A stretch of DNA of 64,000 bases from NCBI GenBank assembly GCA_963767125.1, contig CAVYDB010000001.1, forward strand, positions 10,855 through 74,854, read 5' to 3'. The translations under genes and the position numbers were made by a program. The first letter of the stretch is position 1, and every line of letters starts with the position of its first letter. This document shows, piece after piece, positions 32,791-54,691 of this stretch. Origin of the DNA: an uncultured Bacteroidota bacterium. Its GTDB lineage: Bacteria; Bacteroidota; Bacteroidia; JABEUT01. The notes beneath the pieces were generated by a model, which saw only the letters and a list, made by a program, of their open reading frames with translations, was not told the origin of the DNA and searched no databases.

Positions 32791-32821
32791 AGCCCACGAT
32801 TTAAATCCTTAATTACGCAGG
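32791..32821 (+). repeat. Left junction: half REP + direct repeat + terminal inverted repeat
   Basis: AGCCCACG ATTTAAAT CCTTAATTACGCAGG. Confidence 0.85.
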
Positions 32822-32889
32822 ACTATTTAAAATTATCAAATATGAGGCCCCAATAGAAAATGGGTTGCATTTAATGTCTTTTTGTATCT

Positions 32890-33324
32890 TTGTCACAAAT
32901 TAGAAATATGCCTTCACCGCAGTTCAACAAGAAGATTACAACAAATCGTTGGTATACACTGACATACCAATCTACTCGGGCACTAAATGACGCAGAACAT
33001 CATCAAGTAAAGCGTAAAATTGCGGAGATATTAGTTAATAATTTTACGATACAAGAAATCCACAGCTACGTTCACAGTAATATTGTGTTTGCAATAAATA
33101 CCAATGTAGAGTCACAAGTATTTGACGAAATAGTTCAAAATTTGAACGCCCCTTTAATCAATTACGTACCAAGATTACATTTCAATATTGCGCTTGTGGC
33201 GAAAAATGATTCGAATGTTAATTTCATGTATATTGATGGGATTGATTCAATGAATTCTAATTTTTTAGCCTCTATTTCAGACATATTTCCGTATAATAGG
33301 CATTCTAATTTAGTCCGTCATTAG
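32890..33324 (+). CDS. Hypothetical protein (probable start ATG 32908)
   Basis: Open ORF preceded by a TATCTTTG box at 32885; no recognisable motif. Confidence 0.5.
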   Translation: MSQIRNMPSPQFNKKITTNRWYTLTYQSTRALNDAEHHQVKRKIAEILVNNFTIQEIHSYVHSNIVFAINTNVESQVFDEIVQNLNAPLINYVPRLHFNIALVAKNDSNVNFMYIDGIDSMNSNFLASISDIFPYNRHSNLVRH

Positions 33325-33569
33325 GATTGAAAAAAGCGCCATGCTTTAATTTATGTCTAACAGTTCTCTTTATAATAGAAACCTCAGTTCGAAACCAATT
33401 CCAGCGCAATTGAATTTTTTTTAGTGGAGACGAATGTCTATAATACCATTTATAGAATGGTTCTTGATTATTAAAAGCGTCAGAATGGTTCATATTACAA
33501 GTAGTCAATTTTTTTATAAATAGATGGGAAAAAGCAAACTTTCATATCAAGTTATACCAACGCCTCCAA

Positions 33570-33592
33570 GTCGGTTTCTTGTGAAAACCGAC
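33570..33592. terminator. Hairpin downstream of the transposase
   Basis: GTCGGTTT-CTTGTGA-AAACCGAC between convergent genes. Confidence 0.4.
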
Positions 33593-33615
33593 AAATAGTT
33601 ATGCCAAAAATCATA

Positions 33616-35004
33616 CTACATCATTTTTTCATAATTGAAATGAGTATTATAGAAAATATATTTATCCTTTATTAATTCGCATACAACTATAATGAATGAA
33701 CTAATAAAATCGGGTATTCTAGCATTTACACGTATTTGTGCCCCTTTCTTATTAAATAAAGTAACCATTGCCCGAAAAATATTGTTTGCCAGGGCAGAAG
33801 CAATAAGGAAAACAGTATTTTCATTCATTTGCATAAATGGTGGCAACCGCCAGCCAAAATCATTTTTCATGAAATCAAATTTTCTTTCTGAATCACCTCT
33901 CTTATTGTACTCCAAGAGCAATTCTGTTGGTGTTTTGCTGAAATCGTTTGAAATTATAAGTTTATACTTATAATTTTTATGCCTCTTCCATTTACCCAAT
34001 TTGTATGTACGATTCTCTGCTTTTAAGAGTTTTTTAGTTGCCAGTTCTTTCATTTTTTCTCTTGCCGCCAAACTACCTCTTGTTTGATGAATTGGCATTC
34101 TTGCTACAATTAGCCTATGTTTGGTACTTGAGCCATGCATTGCATAAGGTATATCAGCCAGTTCACAATCCATAAAATGATTAGCGGTTTCCAGTTCAGC
34201 CTTGTTCCATAATTTCCAGGTTTCGATTTCACTAGTCATTATTTTAAAGTTTTTGTTCAACTTGGCATGGATATTAAATTTTATGCCTCTGGAGTGTAGC
34301 ATTTCCATTAAGGGTCGATTATATCCTGCTGCGTCGCATATAACTTTACCAACTCGTATCTTATACTTTGCCAATAAATCAAGGCACTGTTCCAGGCATT
34401 CCTTTATCTTAAACTCAGCGGAGGAATTACCATTCCGCATACTTATAAATACTGGCATACTACCTATAAGGCAAACCATTGGGTTGAAACCGTAGCGAGT
34501 TTTCTCGTAGGATAAATAGGCACCAGCGCAATCAGTCTCTATAAATGTAGCGTCTAAATCAATGGTATAGGATCGACCTTCAATCAAAGCACCCATTTGC
34601 TTGGTTGCTTTAATAAGCATTTCATTGAGTTTAATGTTCTCATTGTAATGAGTAATTGTTTCTTTTGGATTCTTCCAATGGGTTGTTACACCTCGTTCCT
34701 CAATTATCTCTGTCGCCAATTTCTTCATTACTCTTCCAAGTGTGTCATGGCTTGGCAGTTTCAAGTCTTTTATAAAAGACAATCGCTTCCGATATTTGGT
34801 TATATGGTCTAACCTATATCCACCGCATAGTGAAGTTAATATCCATGAAATGAATATATCCTCATACCCATAAGTAGCCTGGGTTACTCTTTTTCCAAGG
34901 CATGAGCGGATTGCCTGCGGAATTCTAAATTTGTTTATGGCTTTTAGAACGGGGACGATTCCACCATAGGGAGAAATATTTCTATTTACTTGAATCGCTT
35001 TCAC
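33616..35004 (-). CDS. IS1380-family DDE transposase
   Basis: ISPYGG, LCGG, PSHDTLGR, TIDLDATFIET (D1), MRNGN, VICDAAGY (D2), YNKRGDSERKFD.MKNDFGW..PP....EN (E); resembles Bacteroidota IS612/IS613-type proteins. Confidence 0.88.
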   Translation of the reverse strand: MKAIQVNRNISPYGGIVPVLKAINKFRIPQAIRSCLGKRVTQATYGYEDIFISWILTSLCGGYRLDHITKYRKRLSFIKDLKLPSHDTLGRVMKKLATEIIEERGVTTHWKNPKETITHYNENIKLNEMLIKATKQMGALIEGRSYTIDLDATFIETDCAGAYLSYEKTRYGFNPMVCLIGSMPVFISMRNGNSSAEFKIKECLEQCLDLLAKYKIRVGKVICDAAGYNRPLMEMLHSRGIKFNIHAKLNKNFKIMTSEIETWKLWNKAELETANHFMDCELADIPYAMHGSSTKHRLIVARMPIHQTRGSLAAREKMKELATKKLLKAENRTYKLGKWKRHKNYKYKLIISNDFSKTPTELLLEYNKRGDSERKFDFMKNDFGWRLPPFMQMNENTVFLIASALANNIFRAMVTLFNKKGAQIRVNARIPDFISSFIIVVCELIKDKYIFYNTHFNYEKMM

Positions 35005-35273
35005 CAGGTTCAGTTCTTAACTTTTATTTTTTTATAGTAAAATATGTCATGCCAATTCAGGACACAAACACTTACATATGTCTAAGGGAAGAAATTGAAA
35101 AATATTAAAATATTGGGCCATTGAGAGCCCATTTTTAACAATTTTCCTGGTTTTTTAACAAATAATTTCTTGAAAAAGAAAACAAGGAAAGAAAGAGGAA
35201 AATATTAAAAATATATTATTCCTTTCCGGATTCAAATTTGGAAGATCTATATTTTGAGGTTGAAATTGCCCCT

Positions 35274-36260
35274 CTAAATACCTTTAAGCAGATGAGCCAA
35301 CTTATCCATCTGAAGCGAATAAAATGTCTCTGCAATATTAGTTCCAATCCCCAACGGATTTAGACCCTCATAATCGTCATAGCAGAAATTACTCTTTATT
35401 ACATATAAAGGATCAACCTCTGCGTCTAATGCTTGTTTTCCATCGTCACGCGTGATGACATATTCCACAATATGGTTATTTGCATAGAGCCAAGTTAAAA
35501 ACATAAGCTTAGCAAAAGGCGAAGTGGGGTCATCTATCAGAGCTGAATAACACAGGGTTTCCGAGCAGGCTTCGCCTTGCAAAAGTTCGAAAAATTGGTT
35601 TCGTATTTCTAAAGGTATAGACAAGAAATCGAATTTATCAGGAACGGCTGTTCTGAGGAATGCCCGATATTCTCGCAGTGCCTTACTTCGCTCATAAGTT
35701 CGTTTTGCGAGATCATTAAAAGCCTCTCTTCCGATGCTCTTTATAGCTTCCTTAGCAAATAGTTTCGCAAGCTGTAGTGTTTCCCAATCTGGAATAACCG
35801 GCTTTCCGAAACCACCAATTTCATATTCATTCTCTCCTGTTTTTACTTTGGAGAGAATGGGAAACCGGGAAAATGCAGAGTCTAAACTTGCATTATGCCA
35901 AAGAATGTCCATTCTTTTCATCCATTTGCGTCTGCTGCAATAAGGTAATAGATGGTCATTTATTTCCAATCCAACGTTGTCTATTATATCGCTTAGATAT
36001 ATTTTTATATTTTCTTCACCATCATCAAAATTTAAAAGCATGTCATTTAGAAAGAAATTATTCATAATTCCATATTCTCGGAGTAGAATAGCTGTTCGAA
36101 AAAGAAACTCGAAAACTGACTTTTGGTCGAATAGGCGATTAATTCCCACCGCGTTCATCAGATTAAAAATCATTTTTGTTTTAGAGGTGGGTTCATTATC
36201 TCCATCCTTCAATTGCATTGGATCTTTTGTATAGTCTAAGTTTATGTAATAATGTATCAT
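35274..36260 (-). CDS. Hypothetical protein
   Basis: 328-aa ORF, co-oriented with the transposase; no recognised motif. Confidence 0.65.
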   Translation of the reverse strand: MIHYYINLDYTKDPMQLKDGDNEPTSKTKMIFNLMNAVGINRLFDQKSVFEFLFRTAILLREYGIMNNFFLNDMLLNFDDGEENIKIYLSDIIDNVGLEINDHLLPYCSRRKWMKRMDILWHNASLDSAFSRFPILSKVKTGENEYEIGGFGKPVIPDWETLQLAKLFAKEAIKSIGREAFNDLAKRTYERSKALREYRAFLRTAVPDKFDFLSIPLEIRNQFFELLQGEACSETLCYSALIDDPTSPFAKLMFLTWLYANNHIVEYVITRDDGKQALDAEVDPLYVIKSNFCYDDYEGLNPLGIGTNIAETFYSLQMDKLAHLLKGI

Positions 36261-36303
36261 TGTTTAGGGGCATTTATCGGTTAATAAATTCTTTTGTAAA
36301 GTG

Positions 36304-36720
36304 TTAGAAGGGTAATCTCCTATCAAGTAGCTGTCTAAGATTAAAGCTCAAGTCCTTTGGTTTCGTACCCTCATGCATGATTATTTGACCGCCATATTTT
36401 TCCAGATTTTGGTAATAGGAAACAAAAACATGGAAGTACTGCTCAGGCGAAAGGTCAAAAAATTCGAGGATGCAGATAAAATTTGGAGAAGTGGGCTTCC
36501 TTTTAAGAACCCATGTACTGGCAGTTTCCATCCAATCTGCTGAAAATGCTTCAGACATTCTAAGTTGTGCTCCGTAATCAACTAAGTGTACCTCGGTACG
36601 CTTACCGTCAATCATTCCTTCGGAACAAAAAGTTAACACCGACGGCAAAATTTCATCATCTGGTAATCCATCAAGGTAGTCACATAACCGCTTTATTCTT
36701 TTTATATAAATATTTGCCAT
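36304..36720 (-). CDS. Hypothetical protein
   Basis: 138-aa ORF with operon-like spacing. Confidence 0.6.
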   Translation of the reverse strand: MANIYIKRIKRLCDYLDGLPDDEILPSVLTFCSEGMIDGKRTEVHLVDYGAQLRMSEAFSADWMETASTWVLKRKPTSPNFICILEFFDLSPEQYFHVFVSYYQNLEKYGGQIIMHEGTKPKDLSFNLRQLLDRRLPF

Positions 36721-36741
36721 TCCGTAATCTGGTTTTTACTA

Positions 36742-36930
36742 TTAATATTCTTGATATATTTCTGACTGCCATAGTTCATATTCCTCGCTTTCTATCATTT
36801 CCCGGTAATCTCTGAAAGCTTCTTTTAGAATTTCGTTCAAAGCAATCTTATCATTGCCGCAGTTTTTCTGGAATAGGTCTACTAATTCGTTTCCAAGTAC
36901 AGCTTGGGCTTGTGGAATTGTAATCATCAT
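36742..36930 (-). CDS. Small acidic hypothetical protein
   Basis: 62 aa, A-rich Bacteroidota-type leader, first gene of the apparent operon. Confidence 0.5.
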   Translation of the reverse strand: MMITIPQAQAVLGNELVDLFQKNCGNDKIALNEILKEAFRDYREMIESEEYELWQSEIYQEY

Positions 36931-37138
36931 TTTTTTATTAATTTATTTTTGGTTCTTTTTTTTGAAAGTGATGGGAAGGGACCGGGAACCGACCCCTTCT
37001 TCATCTTTTGGAAAGACTACATCTTTCTTATCAAATCGCATGGTGCATGGACAACACGCGATGGCACTATGACTCAAACGAAAATAGTTTTCCAAAGGAC
37101 CTTTCAATCCTTCTAACAAAATTTAATAGAATAGGGGC

Positions 37139-38071
37139 TTAATCCTTCGATGCTGGAGTTTCGAGCATTGGAACTTCCCGAATTGCGGTTCCAGCAATTT
37201 CGCGGACGTTACCATAAAATTCAAGAGAATTGAACAAGATTTGTTCCATGATTTTCTCTCTTTTAGTCCACATTCTTTTCAGCGTAACTTGCTCTGATTG
37301 ATGAGACTCTTTTATCGTTTGGAATCCATCAAGAATGGATTCAAATACATTTTTAAACGTTTCGCTTGTAAGGTAGGAATAGAGTTGTTCCATTTTGCTT
37401 TCACGCCCATCCTGTAATCTGACAACGGAGTGTAGTTTTAAAAGTGAATATCTCAGTGCCATCGACAATTCTCTGAAATAATTGAAGCTGCATATCCACA
37501 CGCCGTCTTGCAGTGCACAGCGTTCTACATTTTTTGGTAAGGCGTTTGTAATAATTACTAATACATCTGCCTTTGCTTGCAAATTATCACTCTTGAATTT
37601 TGGAATCCAATCATTGCTCCATGATTTGGTATTCTTGCTTTCATAATATATTTTGCCGCAAACCTGACCTTCCGGGCTTTTCACAATTTGCATTACATCT
37701 GCACCATTGCTACCTTTTTTGGATTGGGTTATCTCATCAGTTGGGAAGGATTCTTGCAGAATTTTAATAATTTCCTGTTCTTGTAGTTCGCCCTGACGTT
37801 GGACAGAACCCTGATTTGCCCTGCGTAAAGCCTCATCAAGCTGCGATTTCAGGTCATCAATAATTTTCTCCTTTTCTCGCATTTGAAATAGAGAGCCTTG
37901 TTCTACTTCCTTTCGGATGGACTGCCGCGTCTGTTCAATCTCGTGACGAAAGTTGTCATTGACTTCGCTCATCACCGTCTCGTCGACGACGATTTCTTTT
38001 CCACAATGTGGGCATGTAATTTTTGGAATCTTTTTCATGGCACTTTTTTTTAAGGTTAATAATAGTTTCAC
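37139..38071 (-). CDS. DUF2130-like protein (Zn ribbon + coiled coil + putative PD-(D/E)xK domain); probable start ATG 38038
   Basis: ITCPHCG, QGSVQRQGELQE, FPTDEI...KG..GAD, IYYESKNTK.W...WI.K.K.D. Confidence 0.8.
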   Translation of the reverse strand: MKLLLTLKKSAMKKIPKITCPHCGKEIVVDETVMSEVNDNFRHEIEQTRQSIRKEVEQGSLFQMREKEKIIDDLKSQLDEALRRANQGSVQRQGELQEQEIIKILQESFPTDEITQSKKGSNGADVMQIVKSPEGQVCGKIYYESKNTKSWSNDWIPKFKSDNLQAKADVLVIITNALPKNVERCALQDGVWICSFNYFRELSMALRYSLLKLHSVVRLQDGRESKMEQLYSYLTSETFKNVFESILDGFQTIKESHQSEQVTLKRMWTKREKIMEQILFNSLEFYGNVREIAGTAIREVPMLETPASKD

Positions 38072-38158
38072 AACCCCTCTTCCAGTGCCAGGAATTGAGT
38101 TTTAAAAACACCTTTCGGTGGTGTTTTCGAGAATGTTATACGTAATTTATAAACAAAG

Positions 38159-38174
38159 GTTACATATATGTAAC
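38159..38174. promoter_or_regulatory. Perfect 16-bp palindrome, candidate XRE operator
   Basis: GTTACATATATGTAAC between the divergent DUF2130-like and XRE genes. Confidence 0.55.
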
Positions 38175-38190
38175 TTTTTTAGATTTATAT

Positions 38191-38463
38191 TTGGATAATT
38201 ATATTGATTATCAGCACAATAAAATTATGACTAAAGAGGAGCATCTCTATTTGCAACAGTTGGGTAAACGAATAGCTTTACGGAGAAAAGAATTAAAAAT
38301 TAAACAAACATCTTTGGGAGAGAAGGTTAAGTTGAGCCGCATTCACATATATAGAATTGAAAGAGGTCTGCACCCCACAACTATAATAGTTCTTAAAAGA
38401 ATTGCCAAGGAATTGGGAATGTCAATTAGCGAATTGGTGGATGTTATTAAAGTAAAAAATTAA
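38191..38463 (+). CDS. XRE-family HTH regulator (probable start ATG 38227)
   Basis: LGKRIALRRKELKIKQTSLGEKVKLSRIHIYRIERG...LKRIAKELG. Confidence 0.85.
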   Translation: MDNYIDYQHNKIMTKEEHLYLQQLGKRIALRRKELKIKQTSLGEKVKLSRIHIYRIERGLHPTTIIVLKRIAKELGMSISELVDVIKVKN

Positions 38464-38480
38464 GCATACTTTTATCTCCT

Positions 38481-38873
38481 ATGGCAAATAATAACATCAT
38501 TCCAAGTGATAGACAATGTACTCTTATGGCAGCAATAATAGCTGATACTATTAAAAAACATACAAGAATTGGAGAACCTTTGGATATTTGCACTGAGAAT
38601 TGGAAATTAGTACAATCAATAAATCCTTCTTTTACTAAAGAACCATTTATTCCCTCAATATTACTGATTTATGATTTTAAAACGGATATTCAATGCCATA
38701 AGGTTGCCATGATGGTTGCCAAAGCCATCGCAGCCAAACCCGTTCAAACAACAGAATTGAAGATGTTGGAAATTTCCAATCCCGACTTATTTAACGAACC
38801 TTCAGTAAGTGGTAGTGGACAGTACTTAATTTGCTATTACGGGATCGATTTAGATTGGCTAATTTATCAATGA
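38481..38873 (+). CDS. Hypothetical protein
   Basis: 130-aa ORF directly after the XRE gene. Confidence 0.55.
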   Translation: MANNNIIPSDRQCTLMAAIIADTIKKHTRIGEPLDICTENWKLVQSINPSFTKEPFIPSILLIYDFKTDIQCHKVAMMVAKAIAAKPVQTTELKMLEISNPDLFNEPSVSGSGQYLICYYGIDLDWLIYQ

Positions 38874-38893
38874 CGCACTCAATTATCTATTGG

Positions 38894-39148
38894 TTAGTTT
38901 TTGCAAACCTGACCAAAACTTCTCCTAAAGTTCTTTATTATTTTATTAATCAATTGAAGTTTGCCTTCTTTTGTTAAAAAATCTGATTCTTTAGTAGTAA
39001 TAATGGATATAACCTTATGTAAGGTAATCATGTAAATATTCATGAACTTTATCCGTAGTTCGATAAACTGTTCTAATTCTTCAGAAGACATTATTGCTTT
39101 ATTAGATGAATGTATAGGTTTCATGACTTTACTTTTTAGAATAAACAA
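38894..39148 (-). CDS. Small hypothetical protein
   Basis: 84-aa AT-rich ORF, weak support. Confidence 0.3.
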   Translation of the reverse strand: MFILKSKVMKPIHSSNKAIMSSEELEQFIELRIKFMNIYMITLHKVISIITTKESDFLTKEGKLQLINKIIKNFRRSFGQVCKN

Positions 39149-39247
39149 TACTTATTGATATTTTAAAATCAATAGTTATATTTTTGGTACTTATATACGT
39201 TGTAAGGCAAATTATTTGCAAATAATTGGAAACAAGGCTCTTATATC

Positions 39248-39604
39248 CTATCTTTTCTTAGAATTATTTTTCAAGCGTTCATTTTCAGCTTCAAGCATTT
39301 GGATATATTTTTCTTTATAGTCGTCGCCGTGGAAATGGATATTTTCGCCTTTTGTGCTTACGCTTTGAATAATCTTGTTATTAGAGACATTAAAAACTTG
39401 GGAGGCATCAAAATTCATAATTTGCGATAAATCCACTTCCAATATTTCAGCTATTTGCTGAACACGGGAAACAGTCAAATCCGTTTCACCCCGTTCAATT
39501 TTGCTATACCCACTCATGCTTAATTCCAGCTTCTCACACATGGTTTCGCGAGTGATGCTTTTTAACTCACGTAGTTTTTTGATATTTTCTCCAATGCTTA
39601 ACAT
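39248..39604 (-). CDS. XRE-family HTH regulator with C-terminal coiled coil
   Basis: IGENIKKLRELKSITRETMCEKLELSMSGYSKIERGETD; LEAENERLK. Confidence 0.9.
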   Translation of the reverse strand: MLSIGENIKKLRELKSITRETMCEKLELSMSGYSKIERGETDLTVSRVQQIAEILEVDLSQIMNFDASQVFNVSNNKIIQSVSTKGENIHFHGDDYKEKYIQMLEAENERLKNNSKKR

Positions 39605-39710
39605 GAAGACAAAAGTAGAAAAATTATTCTATAAGTAGCAAAGAAGCCTTTTAAGTTGTAATAACATTATAAATCAGGTGCTTATTTTGTGACCATAAAA
39701 TTTCATAAAA

Positions 39711-39962
39711 ATGGCAATGACAGAGGTAACAATTAAAAAAATAGAAAAGGACGACAAATTTCACTCGTTGTTTATTGTGGAGGGAGATAAGACAGCTAAA
39801 ATTGACACATTTGAAATGATACCATTTGCAGTAGAGATGCATAATAATACGTTTTTATTTAAGATTGGAAGCGGTAATTTAAAATACGACAATACGGAAG
39901 CTGGAGTTATTTGCGAATTATTTATTGATTTATTAGATAAGAAGTTATTTATAACAAAATGA
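39711..39962 (+). CDS. Hypothetical protein
   Basis: 83-aa ORF with operon-like spacing to the ankyrin gene. Confidence 0.45.
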   Translation: MAMTEVTIKKIEKDDKFHSLFIVEGDKTAKIDTFEMIPFAVEMHNNTFLFKIGSGNLKYDNTEAGVICELFIDLLDKKLFITK

Positions 39963-39980
39963 AAATAATCAACTAACGAC

Positions 39981-40799: not shown

Positions 40800-41160
40800 C
40801 CATTTCTTCTCATGTTTATTGTCAAATAGATAAAGTCTTACTAAAAGCTCCACATTAAAACTCTTGTTGGTAATTCAAAAAAACCTTTATTTTCTTAGGG
40901 TTCTATGAAATTAAAGCGCATTCATTACCAGATAATTATGACATATATCTACAATTCATATTTATATCATACTCTCATCTCAAAAAATATTCTATATTTG
41001 ATTTGTAAATTATAACTCTGGCGATTATATTTAGGTTCTTGCTTAAACACTCTATTTAAGATTCGACCTGTGCCTGCTAATATAAAGCCGATAAAATGTT
41101 AGTGGAAGCAATTGTTTAACTACTTTCTATTATCATATAGAAGGTAAAATTTCAGGTCGA

Positions 41161-41916: not shown

Positions 41917-41958
41917 ATAAATCCTAAAGTATAATTATTAAAACTATAGTTTTTGAAT

Positions 41959-42011
41959 TGCATTATAGTATCGTTTTTATGCATAATAGTCTCAAAAATA
42001 TGCATGTTAGG
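41959..42011 (+). promoter_or_regulatory. Three imperfect direct repeats with 21-bp period, candidate LytTR boxes
   Basis: TGCATTATAGT (41959), TGCATAATAGT (41980), TGCATGTTAGG (42001). Confidence 0.6.
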
Positions 42012-42088
42012 ATAGTCCTAATTTTCTATTAAGTTTATTCTAAACTTTGTGGTGTGAATTTGATTTCTAATTCTAAAAATACTTAGCC

Positions 42089-46483: not shown

Positions 46484-46510
46484 TATATTTGCTTATCTAG
46501 CAGACATATA

Positions 46511-47689
46511 ATGCGTAGGATTAAATCTGTATTTCTGACCATATTGCCCTCTATAATTTTAGGAGGGCTAAATGCCCAGGACTTGCGAACTATAGTTGAT
46601 GGGAATAATAGGTTTGCTTTTCAATTATATGCCAGTATAAAAGATACAAATAATCTGTTTTGTTCTCCATTTAGTATTTCAACTGCTTTGGCGATGACTT
46701 ATGCGGGTGCAAGGGGGAAAACAGAAGAACAAATAAGCAAAACGCTGAATTTTAGCCCTGACCAAAATACATTTCACATAAGCTACAAAAGCTTACTCGA
46801 AAGTATAGACGGCGATAGTACATCAGTAATACTTGACCTATCTAATTCTTTGTGGGCGGAACAGTCTTGTGATTTTTTTAACCCGTTTCTCAATATAGTA
46901 AAAACCGATTATTTATCTGAATTAAATAAGGTTGATTTTAAATCCTTAGATGGTGGGGCAAGAGCAGTAGAGAAAATAAACGAATGGGTGAAGCAAAAAA
47001 CACGGAATAAAATTAAAAATACAATAGGTGAGTTAGATGCAGGTACACGATTAATTTTGATTAATGCCATTTATTTTAAAGGAAAATGGCAAGATGAGTT
47101 TCCTATAAATGACTCCAGAGAACAACTTTTTAAGATTGAAAACGGTAGAAAAGTTTCTGCAATGTTCATGCACTTGAAAGATAGTTTTAGTTATTACGAA
47201 ACACCTTTCATAAAAGCAATACGAATACCATACAAGGGCAAAAATATATCCATGCTTATTTTTTTGCCTAATGGTGCGTTCACTATTAGGCAATTAGAAG
47301 ATTCTCTTTCTTATTCATTTTATTTGAACAACATCCGTTTTCTCAAATATGAGAAGGTTTTTCTTACACTACCCAAATTCAATATGACAAAAACTTTTGA
47401 CTTGAGCACTATGCTTTCAAAAATGGGTATGACGGATGCCTTTACTGACAATGCTGATTTTTCAGGAATGTCCGATATGAAATTAAAGATAAACAAAATT
47501 TTGCATAAAGCATACATAGATGTTTCAGAGGAGGGTACAGAAGCAACTACGGTTACTACTGTTGAGATTGCAGTCACCTCGCCCGAACAGTTTCCATTTT
47601 TTTCCGCTGACCATCCATTTATTTTTTTTATTATTGATAATGCCACAGGGTGTATACTATTTATGGGTAAAATAATGAATCCAAATTAA
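46511..47689 (+). CDS. Serpin (serine protease inhibitor family) with signal peptide
   Basis: FCSPFSISTALAMTYAGARG.T, INEWV, LILINAIYFKGKW, LPKF, HKAYIDVSEEGTEA, ADHPFIFFI...LFMGKIMNP. Confidence 0.95.
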   Translation: MRRIKSVFLTILPSIILGGLNAQDLRTIVDGNNRFAFQLYASIKDTNNLFCSPFSISTALAMTYAGARGKTEEQISKTLNFSPDQNTFHISYKSLLESIDGDSTSVILDLSNSLWAEQSCDFFNPFLNIVKTDYLSELNKVDFKSLDGGARAVEKINEWVKQKTRNKIKNTIGELDAGTRLILINAIYFKGKWQDEFPINDSREQLFKIENGRKVSAMFMHLKDSFSYYETPFIKAIRIPYKGKNISMLIFLPNGAFTIRQLEDSLSYSFYLNNIRFLKYEKVFLTLPKFNMTKTFDLSTMLSKMGMTDAFTDNADFSGMSDMKLKINKILHKAYIDVSEEGTEATTVTTVEIAVTSPEQFPFFSADHPFIFFIIDNATGCILFMGKIMNPN

Positions 47690-47724
47690 TACTCGATAAG
47701 TATTTTATTTAAAATAGCATAGTT

Positions 47725-49104
47725 ATGAAAAAAATACTATTTCCTCTGTTTTTAGTTCTTAGCTCATCGCTTTTCATTTTCTGTAATGCCCAATCTGGTA
47801 ATATTAACACAGTTGTTGGAAATGGCAGCGCGATTGACAGTGGGGACAATGGATTGGCCATAAATGCCTCGCTAAATTGGCCAGAAGGAGCTACCGTTGA
47901 TGATTCGGGTAATGTTTATATCATAGAATTCAATGAAAGTCCCAGAGTCCGCAAAATAAATACTTCAGGTATTATCTCTACGGTTGTAGGAAATGGAATA
48001 CAAGGCTCCAGTGGAGATGGGGGACCTGCTACGGCTGCTGAACTAAATTATCCAACAGATGGTTGCACAGATGCTAAAGGAAATTTATATATTGCAGATT
48101 GTGAGAACCAGGTAATTCGCAAAGTTGATATTAAAACGGGAATTATAAATAAAATAGCGGGAATTTACGGCTGCGGTTGCAGTGGCGGAGACGGAGGACC
48201 TGCCACAGCTGGTGGGCTAAATTTTCCGATGGGAGTATTTGTAGATAAAACAGGTAATCTTTATATTGCAGATCATACCAATAACCGGATTCGTAAGATA
48301 GATACTTCACAAATAATTACTACTATAGCTGGCACGGGAAGACAGGGACTTAGCGGAGATGGAGGACCCGCTATAGCTGCCGACTTATATTACCCTACGG
48401 GTGTTTGTACGGATACCTTAGGAAATGTTTTCTTTGCTGACACATATAATCAGCGAGTACGAAAAGTAAGTACTTCAACAGGTATTATTTCAACTGTAGC
48501 CGGTAGTGGAAATGGATATTCGGGTGCCGGATATGGCGGAGATGGTGGTCTAGCTACTTTAGCAGAATTACATTACCCAAAAAGTGTATTCATTGATAAA
48601 ACAAGCAATATTTATATTGCGGATGAGTTTAATAACAGGATACGTGAAGTTGATGTTTCGGGGATAATAACTACAATCGCAGGTGATGGAGTCCAAGGGT
48701 TTAGTGGAGACGGTGGTCAGGCAGTATTTGCTGAACTGAATTTGCCCTGTGCAATTGCACTTGATACATTAAATAATATTTTTATTGTTGATGGTCCAAA
48801 TATGAGGCTTCGGAAAGTAAATGCTTTAGCAACGGGAATAAATTCAATTAATAATAAAAATTCTTTTTCTCTTTATCCAAATCCAAGTAATGGTAAATTT
48901 ACTTTATCATTGTCAAATATAACAGATGAATGTTATATCGAAATGTATAATATCCTTGGTGAGAAAATGTATTCTCAATGCAACATTCAACATCCGACAT
49001 TCAACATTGATATTTCTTCACAGCCAAGTGGGGTTTATCTTTACAAGGTTTTAAAAGAAAATGGCAGTTTGGTTGGAGAGGGGAAAATACTTGTTAGTAA
49101 ATAG
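47725..49104 (+). CDS. NHL-repeat protein with T9SS CTD, paralogue of 19003-20391
   Basis: GDGGPATAAELNYP....D..GNLYIAD repeats; YPNPS...GVYLY...GEGKILVSK. Confidence 0.9.
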   Translation: MKKILFPLFLVLSSSLFIFCNAQSGNINTVVGNGSAIDSGDNGLAINASLNWPEGATVDDSGNVYIIEFNESPRVRKINTSGIISTVVGNGIQGSSGDGGPATAAELNYPTDGCTDAKGNLYIADCENQVIRKVDIKTGIINKIAGIYGCGCSGGDGGPATAGGLNFPMGVFVDKTGNLYIADHTNNRIRKIDTSQIITTIAGTGRQGLSGDGGPAIAADLYYPTGVCTDTLGNVFFADTYNQRVRKVSTSTGIISTVAGSGNGYSGAGYGGDGGLATLAELHYPKSVFIDKTSNIYIADEFNNRIREVDVSGIITTIAGDGVQGFSGDGGQAVFAELNLPCAIALDTLNNIFIVDGPNMRLRKVNALATGINSINNKNSFSLYPNPSNGKFTLSLSNITDECYIEMYNILGEKMYSQCNIQHPTFNIDISSQPSGVYLYKVLKENGSLVGEGKILVSK

Positions 49105-49279
49105 ATTATGGAAAACAACAAATAATAATGTCCTAAAATATTGTCATTTTTTCATGCGACAAAAGGATACCAACTCAGATTCTTCACTGGAAATATGTCA
49201 GTTTGTTATTAAAAGGGCACCTTTTTCAAAAATATACTTTATTTTAACTTCATCACCTTATAATGCCGTACATCTTACT

Positions 49280-49834
49280 TCAATTTTTTGGTTCTAAAAT
49301 TGTTTTGGAATCGTATAGTGCAATATAAATATCCTTTATCCCTTGGATTATCATTAAACTAAAAGGTTGAGATAATCTACTCTTATTGAATTGCTCAATA
49401 GTCATATGTCTATCCTGACCTGAAGGTGTGGGGTAATCTTCAGGATGCGTATGCCACTCACCAACATAGAACATTTTACCTGCACTATTCTCAAACTCGT
49501 AGTCCACAATAATTTGTGCAGCATTTTTGTCACGAATAAAACTCGTGCGAGTTGCCTTATCAAACTTATTAGGCACAGATGCTTTCACCACATAAATTGT
49601 CTTACCTTCTACTGAGCCAAGTAAAATTCCACCGGCTTCATTTTTGTGAAGTTCATCCTGTACATAATTCTTAAATACGGCCAATGCACTTTCACTAAGA
49701 ACTACTCTATAATCACCAATTAAAAAACTCAGTCGCACAGTTTTTATTTCCTGATATTCTTTTGTTCTTAGATATCCCATAATCTTTTTTACAATAGTAT
49801 AAGCCTTCATGTCAAAAAATAAATAGTAAATCAA
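49280..49834 (-). CDS. cap3: CBASS Cap3, JAB/MPN isopeptidase (true start probably at or after ATG 49810)
   Basis: EAGGILLG and YVGEWHTHPE..PTPSGQD; last gene of the CBASS operon. Confidence 0.9.
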   Translation of the reverse strand: MIYYLFFDMKAYTIVKKIMGYLRTKEYQEIKTVRLSFLIGDYRVVLSESALAVFKNYVQDELHKNEAGGILLGSVEGKTIYVVKASVPNKFDKATRTSFIRDKNAAQIIVDYEFENSAGKMFYVGEWHTHPEDYPTPSGQDRHMTIEQFNKSRLSQPFSLMIIQGIKDIYIALYDSKTILEPKN

Positions 49835-51582
49835 TAAACTAGTAAACTCCCTGGGCTGTTTTTTTGCCCAATATCAGACAATTCTATGCCCAATTTGGAT
49901 ACCATCTCCGTATCACCAACCCATGATAAACACCAGCTTTTTTCATCTGTTTTATCCATTGTTTGGCATATTTTAGGGAAAATGGCTGCTAAGAAACTCA
50001 CAACGCTTTCAGAAGAGTAAGGAGTATAAGATGTATTACAACCTGCTTCCTGTATTTTAAATAGTGCATTAATAGTATAAGCCCTCTCGCTAATTATATT
50101 ATACTTAAACACAGTTTCATCATTAAAAAATTCACCAAACCTATTATCTTTCGGGTTAATATACAGTACGTGCCCTCCTGCTAAATATGGTTCAATCCAG
50201 ATATAAAATACAGGCTTTATTATTTTGCCTGCCATTTGTTGTTCATTTATCCATCTTTCGTGGTTGAATTTACCTATTGCGATAAATATGAAATCTGAAA
50301 TATTAATGAGATCAGCCTCTTCGTTTATACACTTTACAACAGAATTGGGTCTAACATGTATTTTCTTTAACGGCATCTTCTGCTGTATAAATTCAGACAT
50401 TGCTTTTGCCTTATTCTGTCCTGTGGAGAAAAAGCCTAACAAATGTCTGCCAATGTTATCAATAGATAACACATCAAAATCAATGAAAGTATACTCTTCT
50501 ACCCTTAATGAATTTAGAAAATGGGTCAAGTTAGAACCAATACTACCCAACCCTGCAACGGTAATGTTTAATTTCCTTTTTTCTTCCATTTTTCCTTCTG
50601 TTCTAATTAAGAGCCTCTGTTTTGTGAAAATATTGGGTAATATTCTTTGCGCATATTTTGAAACTTCTGGTTGAGAAGACATCACATCGTAAGATTTCAT
50701 TATACCTGGCCTAAAACCTGGTTTGTTCGTATTGAGCTCATAAATTACAAATCCTAAGTAATAATCGACATCTTTTACCTTTCTTCGAGAAAAAATGAAT
50801 TTTGGAAAGGTTGGAGTATTAATAAATTTTCTAAAATTTGAAAAGATTGTATTACCTTGTGTCTTGACTTGTTCTATAATTTGTTTATACTGGATGCCAA
50901 ATGGCGGAGTGCGTAAATTCCAGTCACCTACAAAAAAAGCAGCTCTTTCCTGATAGTTAATCGACAGATTGTTAAAAGCCGATAGAATTTGAAGGTGCGA
51001 GTTACCATAGGCATGCAAAAATAAGCAGTAACCTCCTGAAATATTAGGGTAAAACACTACACCTATATGCTCTTCTATTATTGGCTCATCTATAATTGAA
51101 TAAAACCCTGGAAGTAGGGACTCTTCATGCTCATACTTATGTTCCCAATACGAAATGAACTCCGCCTCAAAATCCGCAATGTTTTCTTTTCGTACTCCTT
51201 TTTCTATTACTTTTTTCGCTTCTTTTATACATTTTTCAACCACTGTTTCAGGTGAATCAGGGTTAGGCAAAGTTAAGTCTGGATCTACAATGCATACGTT
51301 GCAATCGGTTACATGAGGCAAATACTTAGTCTTTTGATAGTATTCTTTTGAAATAAAAACCTTTGGAAAAGTTAGAGGGAAATCAGGTTCAAATAATAAA
51401 TACAACTTTATTACGTCCGGTGAATTGACGGGCAACGGAATTTCGGTTTCAACTTCCCATAACTCTCCAATGTATGGCTGGGGTAGGACTTCATTTTTTT
51501 CAGCCTCACTTAATACCCTAATCGTGTTATCCCTACTATTATATCGTAAAGCCCTTGTCCTAGCTTCGTCAAAATCTATCAT
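49831..51582 (-). CDS. cap2: CBASS Cap2, E2 + ThiF/E1 fusion
   Basis: FP.TFPKV...LPHV...VC...EF.SYW (E2); VAGLGSIGS, DFDVLSIDNIGRH, EAGC.TSYTPY (E1); TAATG overlap with the cyclase. Confidence 0.9.
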   Translation of the reverse strand: MIDFDEARTRALRYNSRDNTIRVLSEAEKNEVLPQPYIGELWEVETEIPLPVNSPDVIKLYLLFEPDFPLTFPKVFISKEYYQKTKYLPHVTDCNVCIVDPDLTLPNPDSPETVVEKCIKEAKKVIEKGVRKENIADFEAEFISYWEHKYEHEESLLPGFYSIIDEPIIEEHIGVVFYPNISGGYCLFLHAYGNSHLQILSAFNNLSINYQERAAFFVGDWNLRTPPFGIQYKQIIEQVKTQGNTIFSNFRKFINTPTFPKFIFSRRKVKDVDYYLGFVIYELNTNKPGFRPGIMKSYDVMSSQPEVSKYAQRILPNIFTKQRLLIRTEGKMEEKRKLNITVAGLGSIGSNLTHFLNSLRVEEYTFIDFDVLSIDNIGRHLLGFFSTGQNKAKAMSEFIQQKMPLKKIHVRPNSVVKCINEEADLINISDFIFIAIGKFNHERWINEQQMAGKIIKPVFYIWIEPYLAGGHVLYINPKDNRFGEFFNDETVFKYNIISERAYTINALFKIQEAGCNTSYTPYSSESVVSFLAAIFPKICQTMDKTDEKSWCLSWVGDTEMVSKLGIELSDIGQKNSPGSLLVY

Positions 51583-52637
51583 TACGCTGTCCGATGAGGT
51601 GCTCCAATAAAAGGTTTTTTACTTTGTACCTCAGCGCCTTCAGGCATATCTATTGCTAAAGCGCATGAAAATCTATCTCCAAAATATCTCTGCCACTTAT
51701 AACAAGCCTCCTTTTGATTTGGGTTATTTATTGCTTGTTCTGCCGATTGAATAAAACCCTCCAGGTCCTTCTTAAATATTGCTTTATCCTCGGACTTATC
51801 ATCCTGCATTATATTTTCAACTTTTGTGGTAGGTCGTATGCACTGAATCCCATATTTGTTGAAGTAGGTATTAACGCCCTTCAAAACCTGCAAAAACGCC
51901 TTGTCGTCTCTTGGATCTAGCTCAAAATTTTCGGCCGTCAATATTGATAGCACAATACCCGGTGGCATATACCTGCCATTCTTTTTATAATCGCCCCATC
52001 CCTTTAGATACCTGACTATTCGTCTTAATTGGTGATCATCCTTCCGAATAGTCTTCGCCCAAGAAAAATACCTGTCTTCCAAAGCTTCGTAGATGAATGC
52101 TTTTTCAAACTTGGATTGAAGTATCTTGTTTTCAAACCATTCAATAAAATCTATTGGATTACTTTCAACCCAGCCTTCTTTTTTATGCGCTAGATATGGC
52201 TTTTCAATGCTCGTACCATAATATATGGGTAAATCAACGTGAAAACCGCTAGTGAAACTTCTCCAAGCATTGTACTTAACCCGTACACAAGTATCTTTTT
52301 GCTCAATTGTTCCATCCTCACCAAAGTCCTTCAGAGATTTAACAACAAATTGATGAAATGCATCCGGCTTAGCAACCTTATCTACAGAATTTTCACCAAT
52401 GAAATAAATGCCCTCATCTAAATCATAATCCTTGTTCTGTGGATCAATAATGGTGTCCATTACAAAAGAGCCTTGAGTACGGAAATCGATTTTTAAACCC
52501 GGTTCGTTTAGGGCATTAAAGCCTTGGGTTATTTTTCTAATTAGATTAATTCTTTTTTCTTCCAATTCAGCCCGATCTTTTTCTTGGAGCCTGATTGTAG
52601 AATTGTAATCCTCAAAGAGCTTGTGACAATTTGCCAT
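51582..52637 (-). CDS. CBASS cGAS/DncV-like nucleotidyltransferase (CD-NTase)
   Basis: QGSF.M.T.I.P...DYDLD, CVRV.Y, FHVDLPIY, QLRRIVRYLKGW, PPG..L..L, W..YFGDRF. Confidence 0.93.
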   Translation of the reverse strand: MANCHKLFEDYNSTIRLQEKDRAELEEKRINLIRKITQGFNALNEPGLKIDFRTQGSFVMDTIIDPQNKDYDLDEGIYFIGENSVDKVAKPDAFHQFVVKSLKDFGEDGTIEQKDTCVRVKYNAWRSFTSGFHVDLPIYYGTSIEKPYLAHKKEGWVESNPIDFIEWFENKILQSKFEKAFIYEALEDRYFSWAKTIRKDDHQLRRIVRYLKGWGDYKKNGRYMPPGIVLSILTAENFELDPRDDKAFLQVLKGVNTYFNKYGIQCIRPTTKVENIMQDDKSEDKAIFKKDLEGFIQSAEQAINNPNQKEACYKWQRYFGDRFSCALAIDMPEGAEVQSKKPFIGAPHRTA

Positions 52638-52648
52638 GATATTATATA

Positions 52649-53281
52649 TTAAAATTTGCCATTGAGGGTTTTCGAAATAAATTTTACTTCTATTTCCCCT
52701 CTGGTTTGTGGCTGGCGATTAGTAAAGTAATGCCCGATCAGTTTATTTTGCCTTCTGTCTTTACCCGGAAGGAACCGTAGTTTGTTTGTGCCCTCGTGAA
52801 TAGGTAAACTACCAGTAAGTTTTGTTCCGCCATTTTGGTAGAACATATAAATTTCATAAAAACCATCTTCTCCTCTCTTGATATCTTCTACCAAACTGGA
52901 AGAAGACGTGCTTTCATTTGCACCATCACTAAAATATGATAGAACTTTTACTTTAGAAGCCGTTTGAGTTACTTCTATAAAGCAGGATTTCTCCTTGTTT
53001 TTATCTTCCCGGATATATCTAATACAACCTTTGTATCTTCCGGAAATATTTGGAACGTCAACCAGAAAGCCGAAAAAAGGTATTTTCCATAAGAAGTTAT
53101 CGTAAAGAGCAAAGAGTCCCGTCAGAGCTGCTATAGTGGTTGGCGCTTCGAAATGTTCGGCTATTACAGGATAAGATATGAAAAACGGTTTTACCCATAA
53201 ATCCAAAACCCAGCTTATGAGACCTGACAGAAATATGATTACTATTACTAGTAGAGTAGGTTTGTAATATTTAAAGGTCAT
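52649..53281 (-). CDS. cap15: CBASS 2TM beta-barrel membrane effector (Cap15 / S-2TMbeta-like)
   Basis: Two TM helices, YD..LWK, PNISG.Y.G, I.QT, S.S, Y.N, HEG, L.G.YFTNR..TRG. Confidence 0.85.
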   Translation of the reverse strand: MTFKYYKPTLLVIVIIFLSGLISWVLDLWVKPFFISYPVIAEHFEAPTTIAALTGLFALYDNFLWKIPFFGFLVDVPNISGRYKGCIRYIREDKNKEKSCFIEVTQTASKVKVLSYFSDGANESTSSSSLVEDIKRGEDGFYEIYMFYQNGGTKLTGSLPIHEGTNKLRFLPGKDRRQNKLIGHYFTNRQPQTRGEIEVKFISKTLNGKF

Positions 53282-53336
53282 ACTTTTAATTTATTGATTC
53301 TTTCCTTTTGTGTCCATATGTGTTCTATATCAAGAT

Positions 53337-53366: not shown

Positions 53367-53408
53367 TTATTTTTTTTCGGGCTTAACAGCTATTAGGTAT
53401 TTTCGTTC

Positions 53409-53456
53409 TATCTTTGCAATATGAAGGATGCTGAATATTTTGGTTCGACAAAGATA
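53409..53456. promoter_or_regulatory. Face-to-face Bacteroidota -7 promoter boxes
   Basis: TATCTTTG on + (53409-53416) and on - (53449-53456). Confidence 0.55.
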
Positions 53457-53513
53457 CATAATATTATTTTGTCACACACATGATACAATTCTTTTCTTAT
53501 AAACTTATTAACA

Positions 53514-53849
53514 ATGGAAACAACCCTTAACACCAGTTTATTGGCAGGAATGCTGAAAAATAAAAGAGCAGACAAAGGATTAAGAGCTGTAGCTGAAGAA
53601 ATTGGCAATGTAAGCCACGCTACATTAGCAAGGATAGAGCAGGGTAAAGTGCCGGATGTTGATACCTTCATTAAAATTTGCAAATGGCTGAATGTATCGA
53701 CTGAGACTTTTATAATAAACAATTCCATGAAGCAGAGTACATCTGCCAAGGATTTGGCTATTGCACAGCTTCGTGCTGATAGGGAGCTAACTAAGGATAC
53801 CTTACAAATGCTTGTAAAGATGATAGACATGGCGTATTCAGCAAAATGA
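53514..53849 (+). CDS. XRE HTH repressor, CapH-like
   Basis: GLRAVAEEIGNVSHATLARIEQGKVPDVDTFIKICKWL; LRADREL tail; divergent from CBASS. Confidence 0.8.
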   Translation: METTLNTSLLAGMLKNKRADKGLRAVAEEIGNVSHATLARIEQGKVPDVDTFIKICKWLNVSTETFIINNSMKQSTSAKDLAIAQLRADRELTKDTLQMLVKMIDMAYSAK

Positions 53850-53856
53850 ATTACTC

Positions 53857-54447
53857 TTGGCAACCAAAGGCAATCTTAAACGGGGCTTTAAAGCCAATGC
53901 TGAACGCTTAGCTGTTGAATATCGCGAGAAACTTGGATTGAATCCTTGTGCCCCGTTACCAGCCTCTAAGCTTGCTGAATTTTTAAAAATACATATCTAT
54001 CCTGCCACTGAATTTCTAACATCGAACTCAGAGATAGCTTCTATATCGGGCAATAATGGATTTGACTGCCGATGGAGTGCATTAAAAATGCAAACTGAAG
54101 CGGGCAATATTATTATTATACATAATCCATTTCATTCTAGTGGTAGACAACAAAGCGATATAATGCATGAATTAGCTCATATTATTTGCAAACATGAAAA
54201 TGACCTTAAAAAATATAATTTCACAATTCCTTCTGGAATGCGCATTTTTAATGATGAGCAAGAAGAAGAAGCTAAATGCTTAGGTTCAACTTTACAGTTG
54301 TCTTCCCCCTGTTTGCTTTGGGCTGCAAAAAATGAAATGCAAACTGAAACAATTGCAACCTATTTCGATGCTACAGTTGAAATGGTTAATTACAGAATGA
54401 ACATAACTGGAATTGCTAAACGAGCTGGTTTTAGAAAACGTGCATAG
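53857..54447 (+). CDS. ImmA/IrrE-family Zn metallopeptidase, CapP-like
   Basis: RGFKA.AE, WSA, N..HS..RQ.SD.MHELAHIIC.H, QEEEA. Confidence 0.85.
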   Translation: MATKGNLKRGFKANAERLAVEYREKLGLNPCAPLPASKLAEFLKIHIYPATEFLTSNSEIASISGNNGFDCRWSALKMQTEAGNIIIIHNPFHSSGRQQSDIMHELAHIICKHENDLKKYNFTIPSGMRIFNDEQEEEAKCLGSTLQLSSPCLLWAAKNEMQTETIATYFDATVEMVNYRMNITGIAKRAGFRKRA

Positions 54448-54660
54448 TGTCATAATTATAAGGCAAACAATGGAATTAAATATGCCGAATACTATTTGAA
54501 AGTGGTACGCCATTCAAAGGTAAAGTATTATTTTTTAAAGTACCTAAAGAGTTCAAAGGAAATTTAATTTATTTGGAAAATTGGAAATGGAGCTAATCGT
54601 TCCATGTTGATTCCCTGTGTATTAGGTTCATTCTGTTTCAATTATACCCAAACCCTACGA

Positions 54661-54691
54661 CCTGCGTAGTTAAGGATTTAAATCGTGGGCT
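54661..54691 (-). repeat. Right junction: terminal inverted repeat + direct repeat + half REP
   Basis: CCTGCGTAGTTAAGG ATTTAAAT CGTGGGCT. Confidence 0.85.

Follow-up and report, generated by a model that had tools for sequence, protein, structure and literature searches.

A probable 21.9-kb unit transposon of the IS1380 family inserted in a palindromic repeat of a Bacteroidota genome

Results

A 21.9-kb segment with a single IS1380-family transposase

The stretch of DNA analysed here (the window) comprises 64 kb of G000, a metagenome-assembled genome (MAG) of an uncultured Bacteroidota bacterium that consists of 49 contigs and is 79% complete; unless a contig is named, coordinates are positions in the whole window. 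Within it lies a segment of 21,869 bp (32807-54675) that begins and ends with a short inverted repeat, carries one transposase gene and about 18 passenger genes, almost all 5′ of the transposase gene, and interrupts a palindrome. An original prediction, made from the DNA letters, had taken this segment to be an IS1380-type cargo transposon sitting at the exact centre of a repetitive extragenic palindromic (REP) sequence. The junctions read exactly as it described, with AGCCCACG-ATTTAAAT-CCTTAATTACGCAGG on the left and CCTGCGTAGTTAAGG-ATTTAAAT-CGTGGGCT on the right (Table 1). Because each intact copy of the palindrome elsewhere holds a single ATTTAAAT, the element is flanked by an 8-bp direct duplication. 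The 15-bp ends, which start with CC and had been described as inverted in 14 of 15 positions, were recovered both from the junctions and by searching the window with the 15-mer, where only three sites had up to three mismatches: the two ends (none and one) and position 24673 (three), which is a chance-level match. The pairing of the ends is not itself a matter of chance, because homologous elements in other genomes terminate in the same 15-mer. It can be seen that the segment has the parts of a unit transposon, namely one transposase, two terminal inverted repeats, passengers between them and a direct target duplication. Base composition is not discriminating, as the G+C fraction of windows within the element (0.31-0.41) overlaps that of flanking windows (about 0.37-0.43).

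As had been predicted, the only transposase gene is intact and lies about 0.8 and 19.7 kb from the two ends (809 bp on the left and 19,671 bp on the right). It is single-copy in G000, and a transposase scan of genome contigs returned only three loci. No copy of this inverted repeat had been found beside the gene, and our search of the element interior at up to five mismatches agreed with this, yielding only six matches that start with CC, all at exactly five mismatches, which we take as chance. Nor did a Pfam scan of 19 open reading frames (ORFs) of the element reveal an integrase, relaxase or conjugation domain, in line with the original prediction.

The transposase aligns by tblastn over 95-97% of its length with those of IS942, IS612B, ISBf12 and IS613 (25-29% identity, E values down to 5e-40), IS942 being 28.7% identical over 97% of the query. 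When 11 sequences including IS942 were aligned, D151, D224, E373, Y366 and R369 were invariant and K380 nearly so. These residues agree with Y-x2-R-x3-E-x6-K, which we take to be the signature of the IS1380 family; the assignment of catalytic residues presumes that motif. The family profile in Pfam and the CC-starting ends of about 15 bp likewise place the element with IS1380, and its ends agree at 13/15 positions with CCTTAATTCCGCAAC, found in ISBf12/IS613-type copies (L206, L208 and L209), and at 11/15 with the IS942 end CCTCAAATCCGCAAC. Two features depart from the family's usual form: a length of about 1.5-2 kb with a single ORF, compared with 21,869 bp here and 3,107-14,278 bp in the relatives described below, and a 4-5-bp duplication, compared with 8 bp here.

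A protein database search gave 394 transposase homologues at E ≤ 1e-20. Among the 120 homologue clusters listed, most had a single member and none was more than 59% identical to the window transposase, and every homologue with a source name came from a Bacteroidota metagenome assembly. Such a distribution points to an element that is diverse and low in copy number, unlike a multi-copy insertion sequence (IS). No match at E ≤ 1e-30 was obtained in the 12 genomes of the same genus that were searched.

The target palindrome and its empty site

The uninterrupted 24-bp palindrome, made of the halves AGCCCACG and CGTGGGCT, is present exactly at two other places in G000 (C4:15197-15220 and C18:96190-96213), with one mismatch at C13:53506-53529 and in looser form at C13:54059, C29:25899 and C31:95008. 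In a genome that is 79% complete this makes about six intact or variant copies plus two interrupted ones. The strict definition of a REP calls for more than 100 copies per genome (PMC2817692). The target is a low-copy, REP-like palindrome rather than a proven high-copy REP, and 'REP-like' is the safer term; the original prediction was correct in that the element interrupts a palindromic repeat of its host, while the strict REP label does not hold and, as shown below, the preference is broader than REPs.

The second interrupted copy is marked by a solo end, CCTTAATTAAGCAGG, at C31:95114-95128 (L003/L201, 95098-95128). It adjoins another half-copy of the palindrome, with ATTTCAAT, and is followed by TCGTAG, as is the right end in the window. 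Beyond it lie one NHL/SprB/type IX secretion system (T9SS) gene and then housekeeping genes, and the 9.3 kb of contig that remain contain no partner end. Probably the solo end is what is left of an older insertion, the second to have hit this repeat family. At both loci a further small palindrome (AATGGTTTTAACCATT at 54714-54729 in the window, AATGGTTTTAACCGTT at about C31:95055-95070) lies some 25-40 nucleotides (nt) away from that of the target, and window positions 54676-54730 are 78-83% similar to sites in G000 C4 and in the related genome G009. The target palindrome may therefore belong to a composite repeat of greater size.

Four runs (X1-X4) of one soil-metagenome study, available only in assembled form, contain contigs that cover parts of the left junction. 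In run X1 (share 0.80) a 412-nt contig spans the occupied junction (32548-32959) with zero differences, and this run is probably the sample from which the window came. Run X2 contains a 151-nt contig (record 10, depth 2) that follows the window from 32709 to 32807 with one changed letter and then departs from the element sequence for 52 nt; of this overhang 30 letters are reported, and they are identical to 54685-54714, so that the contig passes from the left flank directly into the right. Both the 30-mer 54685-54714 and the 90-mer 32709-32798 are unique in G000. It follows that a closely related strain in a sister sample carries no element here and joins the left flank to the right through one ATTTAAAT. 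The empty site that the original prediction had proposed to look for is present there, and the palindrome that it had rebuilt by removing the element is seen intact both in this contig and elsewhere in G000. The lack of cover in runs X3 and X4, and over most of the element in X2, is not evidence either way. An apparent joint in run X3 (35100>40374), made of pieces only 18 and 25 nt long, was discarded as spurious. Contigs of run X1 (window 31001-51000) also show loose ends, CTGTCTCTTATACACATCT for example, that resemble remnants of library adapters rather than biology.

Synteny in 40 relatives yielded no readable empty site, with flank genes on different contigs and species of the same genus only about 73% identical. 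In G002, G006 and G009 the left and right flank genes are on different contigs, often less than 2 kb from a contig end, and the aspartyl-protease gene beside the element (54765-55727) is without a counterpart in same-genus relatives. This region seems to vary between the genomes or to be difficult to assemble.

Nine relatives share the terminal repeats

Searching the genomes behind the transposase homologues, together with metagenome contigs, with the 15-mer identified nine relatives with the same ends, of which eight are inverted pairs spanning 3.1-14.3 kb of a single contig and the ninth is divided between two contigs (Table 1). The two ends are identical (15/15) in G038, G041, L120 and G788, and in G041 about 55 nt are near-identical. 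In the window element and the eight relatives that could be placed (all but G766) the 3′ end of the transposase gene faces the nearer terminal repeat, at a distance of 506-2,746 bp in the window, G309, G038, G041, G282, G324 and L120, and the remaining cargo of the placed relatives lies 5′ of the gene. No end-like sequence was found beside the 5′ side of the transposase gene in the six relatives checked (L029 for G041, and L077-L081).

The transposase gene is the only one common to all six elements whose genes were clustered, and it is also present in G766, G788 and G779. A DUF2130 gene occurs in four of the six, and in G788 and G779 but not in G766, and XRE-type helix-turn-helix (HTH) genes occur in five of the six. 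The rest of the cargo differs between elements, and in the relatives it consists mostly of unknown proteins, plus Abi_alpha, HNH and a T9SS lectin. Homologues of the 138-aa protein that we call cl2 (138-163 aa) are encoded directly upstream of the transposase in four of the six clustered elements; cl2 is also found in L120 (broken), L136, G788 and G779 and is absent from G766. The window protein had no match in Pfam, NCBIfam or PADLOC, and a word-based homologue search found only cl2 itself. Its atlas matches, scoring at most 0.81, were uninformative; its AF2 model (pLDDT 80) matched nothing in Foldseek at E ≤ 0.001, the best row having an E value of 1.2, and the top VIA Z score was 4.4. On its recurrence beside the transposase, cl2 is the only recurrent candidate for a helper of the enzyme.

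The original prediction had allowed that the half-palindromes might travel with the ends, or that close homologues of the transposase might have differing proximal repeats of their own. Neither was seen: the 15-bp ends of the relatives adjoin unrelated flanks, and homologues that are 37-57% identical use the same end.

A pattern scan of metagenome contigs gave 80 loci out of 118 matching stretches, of which eight loci with nine ends (L083, L098, L105, L112, L119, L120, L136 and L140) were judged genuine from an adjoining TCT or a nearby transposase; L160 was set aside as uncertain and the others look like chance 15-mers. Among 401 genomes of the phylum 63 had a match, which is about the level of a reversed-pattern control, and only G000 and G038 contained an inverted pair on a single contig. 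Three further loci were left out of the pair counts, L213 (in G762) having an exact end with no transposase within 19 kb, and L214 and L215 having the 15-mer inside an apparent conserved gene. At G230 C3:637735-639471 (L082, L053 and L061) a homologous transposase is in two pieces (637948-638868 and 638989-639471) and an end, CCTCAATTACGCAAG, adjoins half a terminator, with no second end in the 19 kb examined; this locus has the look of a copy in decay. In L078 (1016-1060), L083 (about 89-123) and L136 (inside 3315) a hairpin resembling a terminator, T-run included, was observed just inside the terminal repeat, and such a hairpin could replace a host terminator split by the insertion.

Most insertions are centred on hairpins of unrelated sequence

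We rebuilt each unoccupied site by script, deleting the element together with one duplication copy. It can be seen in Table 1 that duplications of 7-8 bp are present in eight of the ten elements (the window element and its nine relatives), and that in eight of ten a perfect hairpin with a stem of at least 6 bp has its centre no more than 0.5 nt from that of the duplication. Stems of these lengths occur at a fixed centre with frequencies of 5e-6 to 6e-3 at 200,000 random G000 positions, so that insertion in hairpins recurs above this chance level, and the exact centring is not explained by an intergenic location. The stem sequences are unrelated between elements, as illustrated by G309 (AAAAAAAGCTGAA-CCATCTGG, element, CCATCTGG-TTCAGCTTTTTTT) and G038 (AAAAAGCCCCGA-GATAGAC, element, GATAGAC-CCGGGGCTTTTTT). 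An A-tract of at least five residues ends 8-20 nt outside 18 of 37 ends (9/20 paired and 9/17 solo), compared with 4.4% of random positions, and because of this about half of the targets look like bidirectional intrinsic terminators, laid out as A-tract, stem, loop, stem and T-tract.

As controls we used classical IS1380 copies from Bacteroidota plasmids, five from six loci, with L207 (IS612B) left out as it had no end pair under the filter. These are 1,551-1,622 bp long with one gene, have a 5-bp duplication (three copies) or none (two), and have target stems of 1-3 bp, that is, no target hairpin. By contrast, the window element and its relatives are 3.1-21.9 kb long with 7-8-bp duplications and hairpin dyads, and the transposase gene lies 0.5-2.7 kb from one end. 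The 8-bp duplication that the original prediction had called atypical is in keeping with the 7-8 bp of most of the group, and its suggestion that REP hairpins are targeted stands as far as hairpin dyads are concerned, though not as to REPs, since the stems are unrelated in sequence and about half of them are terminator-like. We conclude from comparison of the elements that insertion at a hairpin dyad appears to be a trait common to the clade.

The length of the duplication goes partly with that of the loop. A 7-bp duplication accompanies an odd loop in G038 (9 nt) and G779, where the 7-nt unpaired centre is the duplication itself, and an 8-bp duplication an even loop in the window and G309, but L120 and G788 combine an even loop with 7 bp, so that loop parity is not a full predictor. 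The longest exact match between a target and the interior of its own element was 8-13 nt, against 8-12 nt for the interiors of other elements; by this weak test there is no support for an element-encoded RNA or DNA guide.

Cargo of the window element

The original prediction had listed defence, secretion and regulator genes among about 20 carried by the element, and these classes were all found (Table 1). The four CBASS (cyclic oligonucleotide-based antiphage signalling system) genes, encoding cyclase, effector, E1/E2 and JAB proteins, form one complete operon. Divergent from it, an HTH gene and an M78 peptidase gene resemble the regulators CapH and CapP, which is weak evidence as neither gene reached 1e-5 in PADLOC; a 151-aa ORF on the minus strand (53408-53863), antisense to this HTH gene, is probably spurious. 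The subtilase, serpin and NHL-repeat genes (42089-49104) may provide a secreted protease with its own inhibitor. No family was assigned to cl2 and four other ORFs of the element, one of which, between the transposase gene and the near end, has a 34%-identical homologue in the same place in the G041 element.

Table 1. Features of the window element, and its relatives with their insertion sites
Feature	Position	Strand	Evidence or remarks
Left target half-palindrome AGCCCACG	32791-32798		Junction; intact palindrome elsewhere in G000
Left 8-bp duplication copy ATTTAAAT	32799-32806		Single copy in intact palindromes and empty-site contig
Proximal terminal inverted repeat CCTTAATTACGCAGG	32807-32821	+	3′ of transposase gene; recurs downstream of L029 and L030 transposases
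144-aa ORF	32890-33324	+	No Pfam, NCBIfam or PADLOC family
IS1380-family DDE transposase, 462 aa, intact	33616-35004	-	PF13701, 66.5 bits (cutoff 34.7)
328-aa ORF	35274-36260	-	No family in scans; no homologue in the other five clustered elements
cl2, 138-aa accessory protein	36304-36720	-	Recurrent upstream of transposase in clade
DUF2130 protein	37139-38071	-	PF09903, E 1e-55; recurrent in clade
XRE-type HTH regulator	38191-38463	+	PF01381
XRE-type HTH regulator	39248-39604	-	PF01381, E 6.7e-12
Ankyrin-repeat protein	39981-40799	+	PF12796
Response-regulator receiver protein	41161-41916	+	PF00072
S8 subtilase, 1464 aa, SprB repeats and T9SS C-terminal sorting domain	42089-46483	+	PF00082, PF13573, PF18962
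Serpin	46511-47689	+	PF00079, E 9e-112
NHL-repeat protein with T9SS sorting domain	47725-49104	+	PF25021, PF01436, PF18962
CBASS operon, four genes	49280-53281	-	Pfam and PADLOC
CBASS JAB (Cap3-like)	49280-49834	-	PADLOC JAB 1.7e-45; Pfam Prok-JAB
CBASS E1/E2 (Cap2-like)	49831-51582	-	PADLOC E1-E2 3.9e-156; Pfam ThiF/Prok-E2_B
CBASS cyclase (CD-NTase)	51582-52637	-	PADLOC Cyclase 1e-92; Pfam DncV-like
CBASS effector, 2TM and Cap15 domains	52649-53281	-	PADLOC 2TM effector 2.8e-32; Pfam Cap15_CD_rec
HTH protein	53514-53849	+	PF01381
M78 peptidase	53857-54447	+	PF06114; PADLOC capP weak, 6.3e-4
Distal terminal inverted repeat, read as CCTGCGTAGTTAAGG	54661-54675	-	CCTTAACTACGCAGG on minus strand; 14/15 against proximal end
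Right 8-bp duplication copy ATTTAAAT	54676-54683		Junction
Right target half-palindrome CGTGGGCT	54684-54691		X2 contig passes from left flank directly into CGTGGGCT
Window insertion site			Duplication 8 bp; perfect stem 10 bp; loop 4 nt
Relative in G041	C32:7873-20431		12,559 bp; transposase 56-57% identical to that of the window; duplication 7 bp; best stem 2 bp (no hairpin)
Relative in G309	C20:2678-10913		8,236 bp; transposase 56%; duplication 8 bp; perfect stem 24 bp; loop 4 nt
Relative in G038	C5:265763-280040		14,278 bp; transposase 51-52%; duplication 7 bp; perfect stem 11 bp; loop 9 nt
Relative in G788	C97		11,053 bp; transposase 57%; duplication 7 bp; perfect stem 9 bp; loop 4 nt
Relative in G766	C4		3,107 bp; transposase 49%; duplication 8 bp; best stem 2 bp (no hairpin)
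Relative L120 (metagenome locus)			3,267 bp; transposase 51-53%; duplication 7 bp; perfect stem 12 bp; loop 4 nt
Relative in G282	C16		5,715 bp; transposase 37-38%; duplication 4 bp; perfect stem 6 bp; loop 4 nt
Relative in G324	C3		12,428 bp; transposase 41-44%; no duplication; perfect stem 7 bp; loop 6 nt
Relative in G779	Split over two contigs		Transposase 56%; duplication 7 bp; perfect stem 8 bp; loop 5 nt

Discussion

Our analysis supports the overall interpretation given by the original prediction, that of a cargo-carrying IS1380 variant inserted at the centre of a hairpin. The segment 32807-54675 is very probably a non-composite (unit) transposon of 21,869 bp belonging to a clade within the IS1380 family that had not been named before. 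Several observations weigh against this view or narrow it. The NCBIfam profile for IS1380 family transposases (NF033539) scored 176.2 bits, 3.8 below its cutoff of 180, over profile positions 6-406 of 419. The occupied-junction contig of run X1 is not independent evidence, and the empty site is a single assembled contig of 151 nt and depth 2, from the same study, of whose overhang 30 of 52 letters were reported. The null frequencies for hairpin stems come from random G000 positions and not from host-matched intergenic DNA, which makes the P values too generous. Two of the ten elements (G041 and G766) lie away from hairpin centres, which makes the preference one with exceptions, and G324 has no duplication while that of G282 is only 4 bp. 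Finally, the element is known from an incomplete MAG and from sequence alone.

Among other accounts of the locus, it might be held that the true ends are the whole inverted sequences of 31-35 nt and that a half-palindrome travels along, with no target duplication. A repeat search does return the junction pair as one inverted repeat of 35 nt that is 94% complementary, and the solo end on C31 again has a half-palindrome beside the 15-mer. The repeat looks this long because the target is itself palindromic, and with the palindrome restored where the element is missing in the X2 contig, present without any element elsewhere in G000, and replaced by unrelated flanks next to the 15-mer in every relative, we regard this as the least probable account of all. 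Mobilisation after the manner of ISEcp1 or IS1247, in which an ordinary small IS took up a surrogate distal end and carried adjacent DNA with it in a one-ended transposition, has the merit that it is known for members of the family. It is nevertheless very unlikely here, given that no end-like sequence separates transposase and cargo in the window or at L029, that the distal end is a true repeat (14/15 in the window and 15/15 in four relatives), that the cargo is 5′ and not 3′ of the transposase, and that nine relatives repeat this architecture with cargo that differs. We give similarly little credence to the idea that the segment moved otherwise, by recombination between palindromic repeats or through a recombinase acting in trans, with the IS1380 gene as a passenger. 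Its large cargo and the two of ten relatives without typical targets might be cited for this; no integrase or recombinase domain was found among the ORFs scanned, exact 7-8-bp direct duplications stand beside perfect IS1380-type ends in eight of ten elements, and the transposase gene is the sole gene present in all six clustered elements.

Somewhat more plausible, though still improbable, is that there is no target preference and that the association with hairpins reflects survivorship in harmless intergenic terminators. Terminator loops are neutral sites, two of the ten insertions lie outside hairpins, and IS1380 elements have been reported to be over-represented between co-directional genes (PMC9208149). 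Selection for intergenic sites nonetheless leaves the centring on a dyad to within 0.5 nt in eight of ten elements unexplained. Moreover, the five classical plasmid copies are without a target hairpin, and the palindrome hit in the window is a repeat of which G000 has a further copy next to a solo end.

Returning to the reading of a hairpin-targeting unit transposon, the steps of insertion might be as follows. The transposase would bind the two 15-bp ends and pair them, and would then make staggered cuts 7-8 bp apart that are symmetric about the two-fold axis of the target. Since the stem sequences are unrelated, it would have to recognise the symmetry of the target, or an extruded hairpin or cruciform shape, and not its bases. 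A terminator loop could take up an insertion without damage to any gene, and this may explain the tolerance of as much as 20 kb of cargo. In its full form, which we consider possible and put forward tentatively, the proposal is that a clade of IS1380 elements reads hairpin or cruciform shape or symmetry and cuts about the dyad, with a duplication of 7 or 8 bp perhaps set by loop parity, and that terminator loops would serve as a universal, harmless landing pad for a one-gene DDE transposon that moves defence and secretion genes, 3-20 kb at a time, from one member of the Bacteroidota to another.

The nearest known elements are IS942, ISBf12, IS613 and IS612B of Bacteroides and Phocaeicola, with which the window element shares a full-length homologous DDE transposase and near-identical 15-bp CC ends. 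ISEcp1 transposition units likewise move neighbouring genes with a single IS1380-family transposase. The same is described for IS1247a/ISPme1 'TMos', where one such enzyme moves neighbour genes, IS1247 itself being 1,672 bp long with a 5-bp duplication (PMC3281130). ISEcp1 and IS1247a units have one true end plus a weak surrogate and keep a complete small IS inside; by contrast, the window element has two true ends and none internal. ISArsp10, another IS1380 member, is reported as 1,667 bp with no passenger genes, a 5-bp duplication and the end CCTTGATCCACCGAT (PMC6305408). The same report gives ISArsp9 and ISArsp14 (ISNCY) as elements of 13.0 and 17.5 kb with 11-12 passenger genes; these resemble the window element in having terminal repeats, one transposase and many passengers, but differ in transposase family, and no hairpin targeting is mentioned in the relevant part of that report.

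Insertion into palindromic extragenic repeats recalls IS1397 and ISKpn1 (IS3 family) and other REP-targeting ISs, which are small and bound to the REP of one host, whereas the present clade is found in unrelated hairpins and several hosts and carries cargo. IS1272 belongs to the IS1182 family. In Staphylococcus aureus it targets inverted-repeat (stem-loop) structures, by a mode described as 'IR-replacing' that leaves no duplication (PMC5678879); it shares with our clade a target of inverted-repeat structure, and differs in being a small IS without target duplication. The list of REP-targeting families in Tobes & Pareja (2006; PMC1525189) comprises IS3, IS110, IS4, IS256 and IS5, and IS1380 is mentioned nowhere in that paper. 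We found no literature on hairpin or terminator targeting by IS1380 elements, or on large passenger-carrying members, in a search with ISfinder/TnCentral, subscription reviews and supplements outside its scope, and a prior description of such elements may exist.

The IS1380 family is best known for ISEcp1, a spreader of resistance genes through sloppy end recognition, and we know of little mechanistic work on the family. The clade described here would be a sister that solves the transport of cargo differently, with true distant ends, a longer staggered cut and a preference for hairpin centres whatever their sequence. The window element is a concrete vehicle for a complete CBASS operon together with a protease/serpin/T9SS module in soil Bacteroidota. 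Should the target be recognised by its structure, the clade would provide a simple system in which one protein integrates large DNA at terminator loops, which are predictable, gene-sparing sites downstream of many genes.

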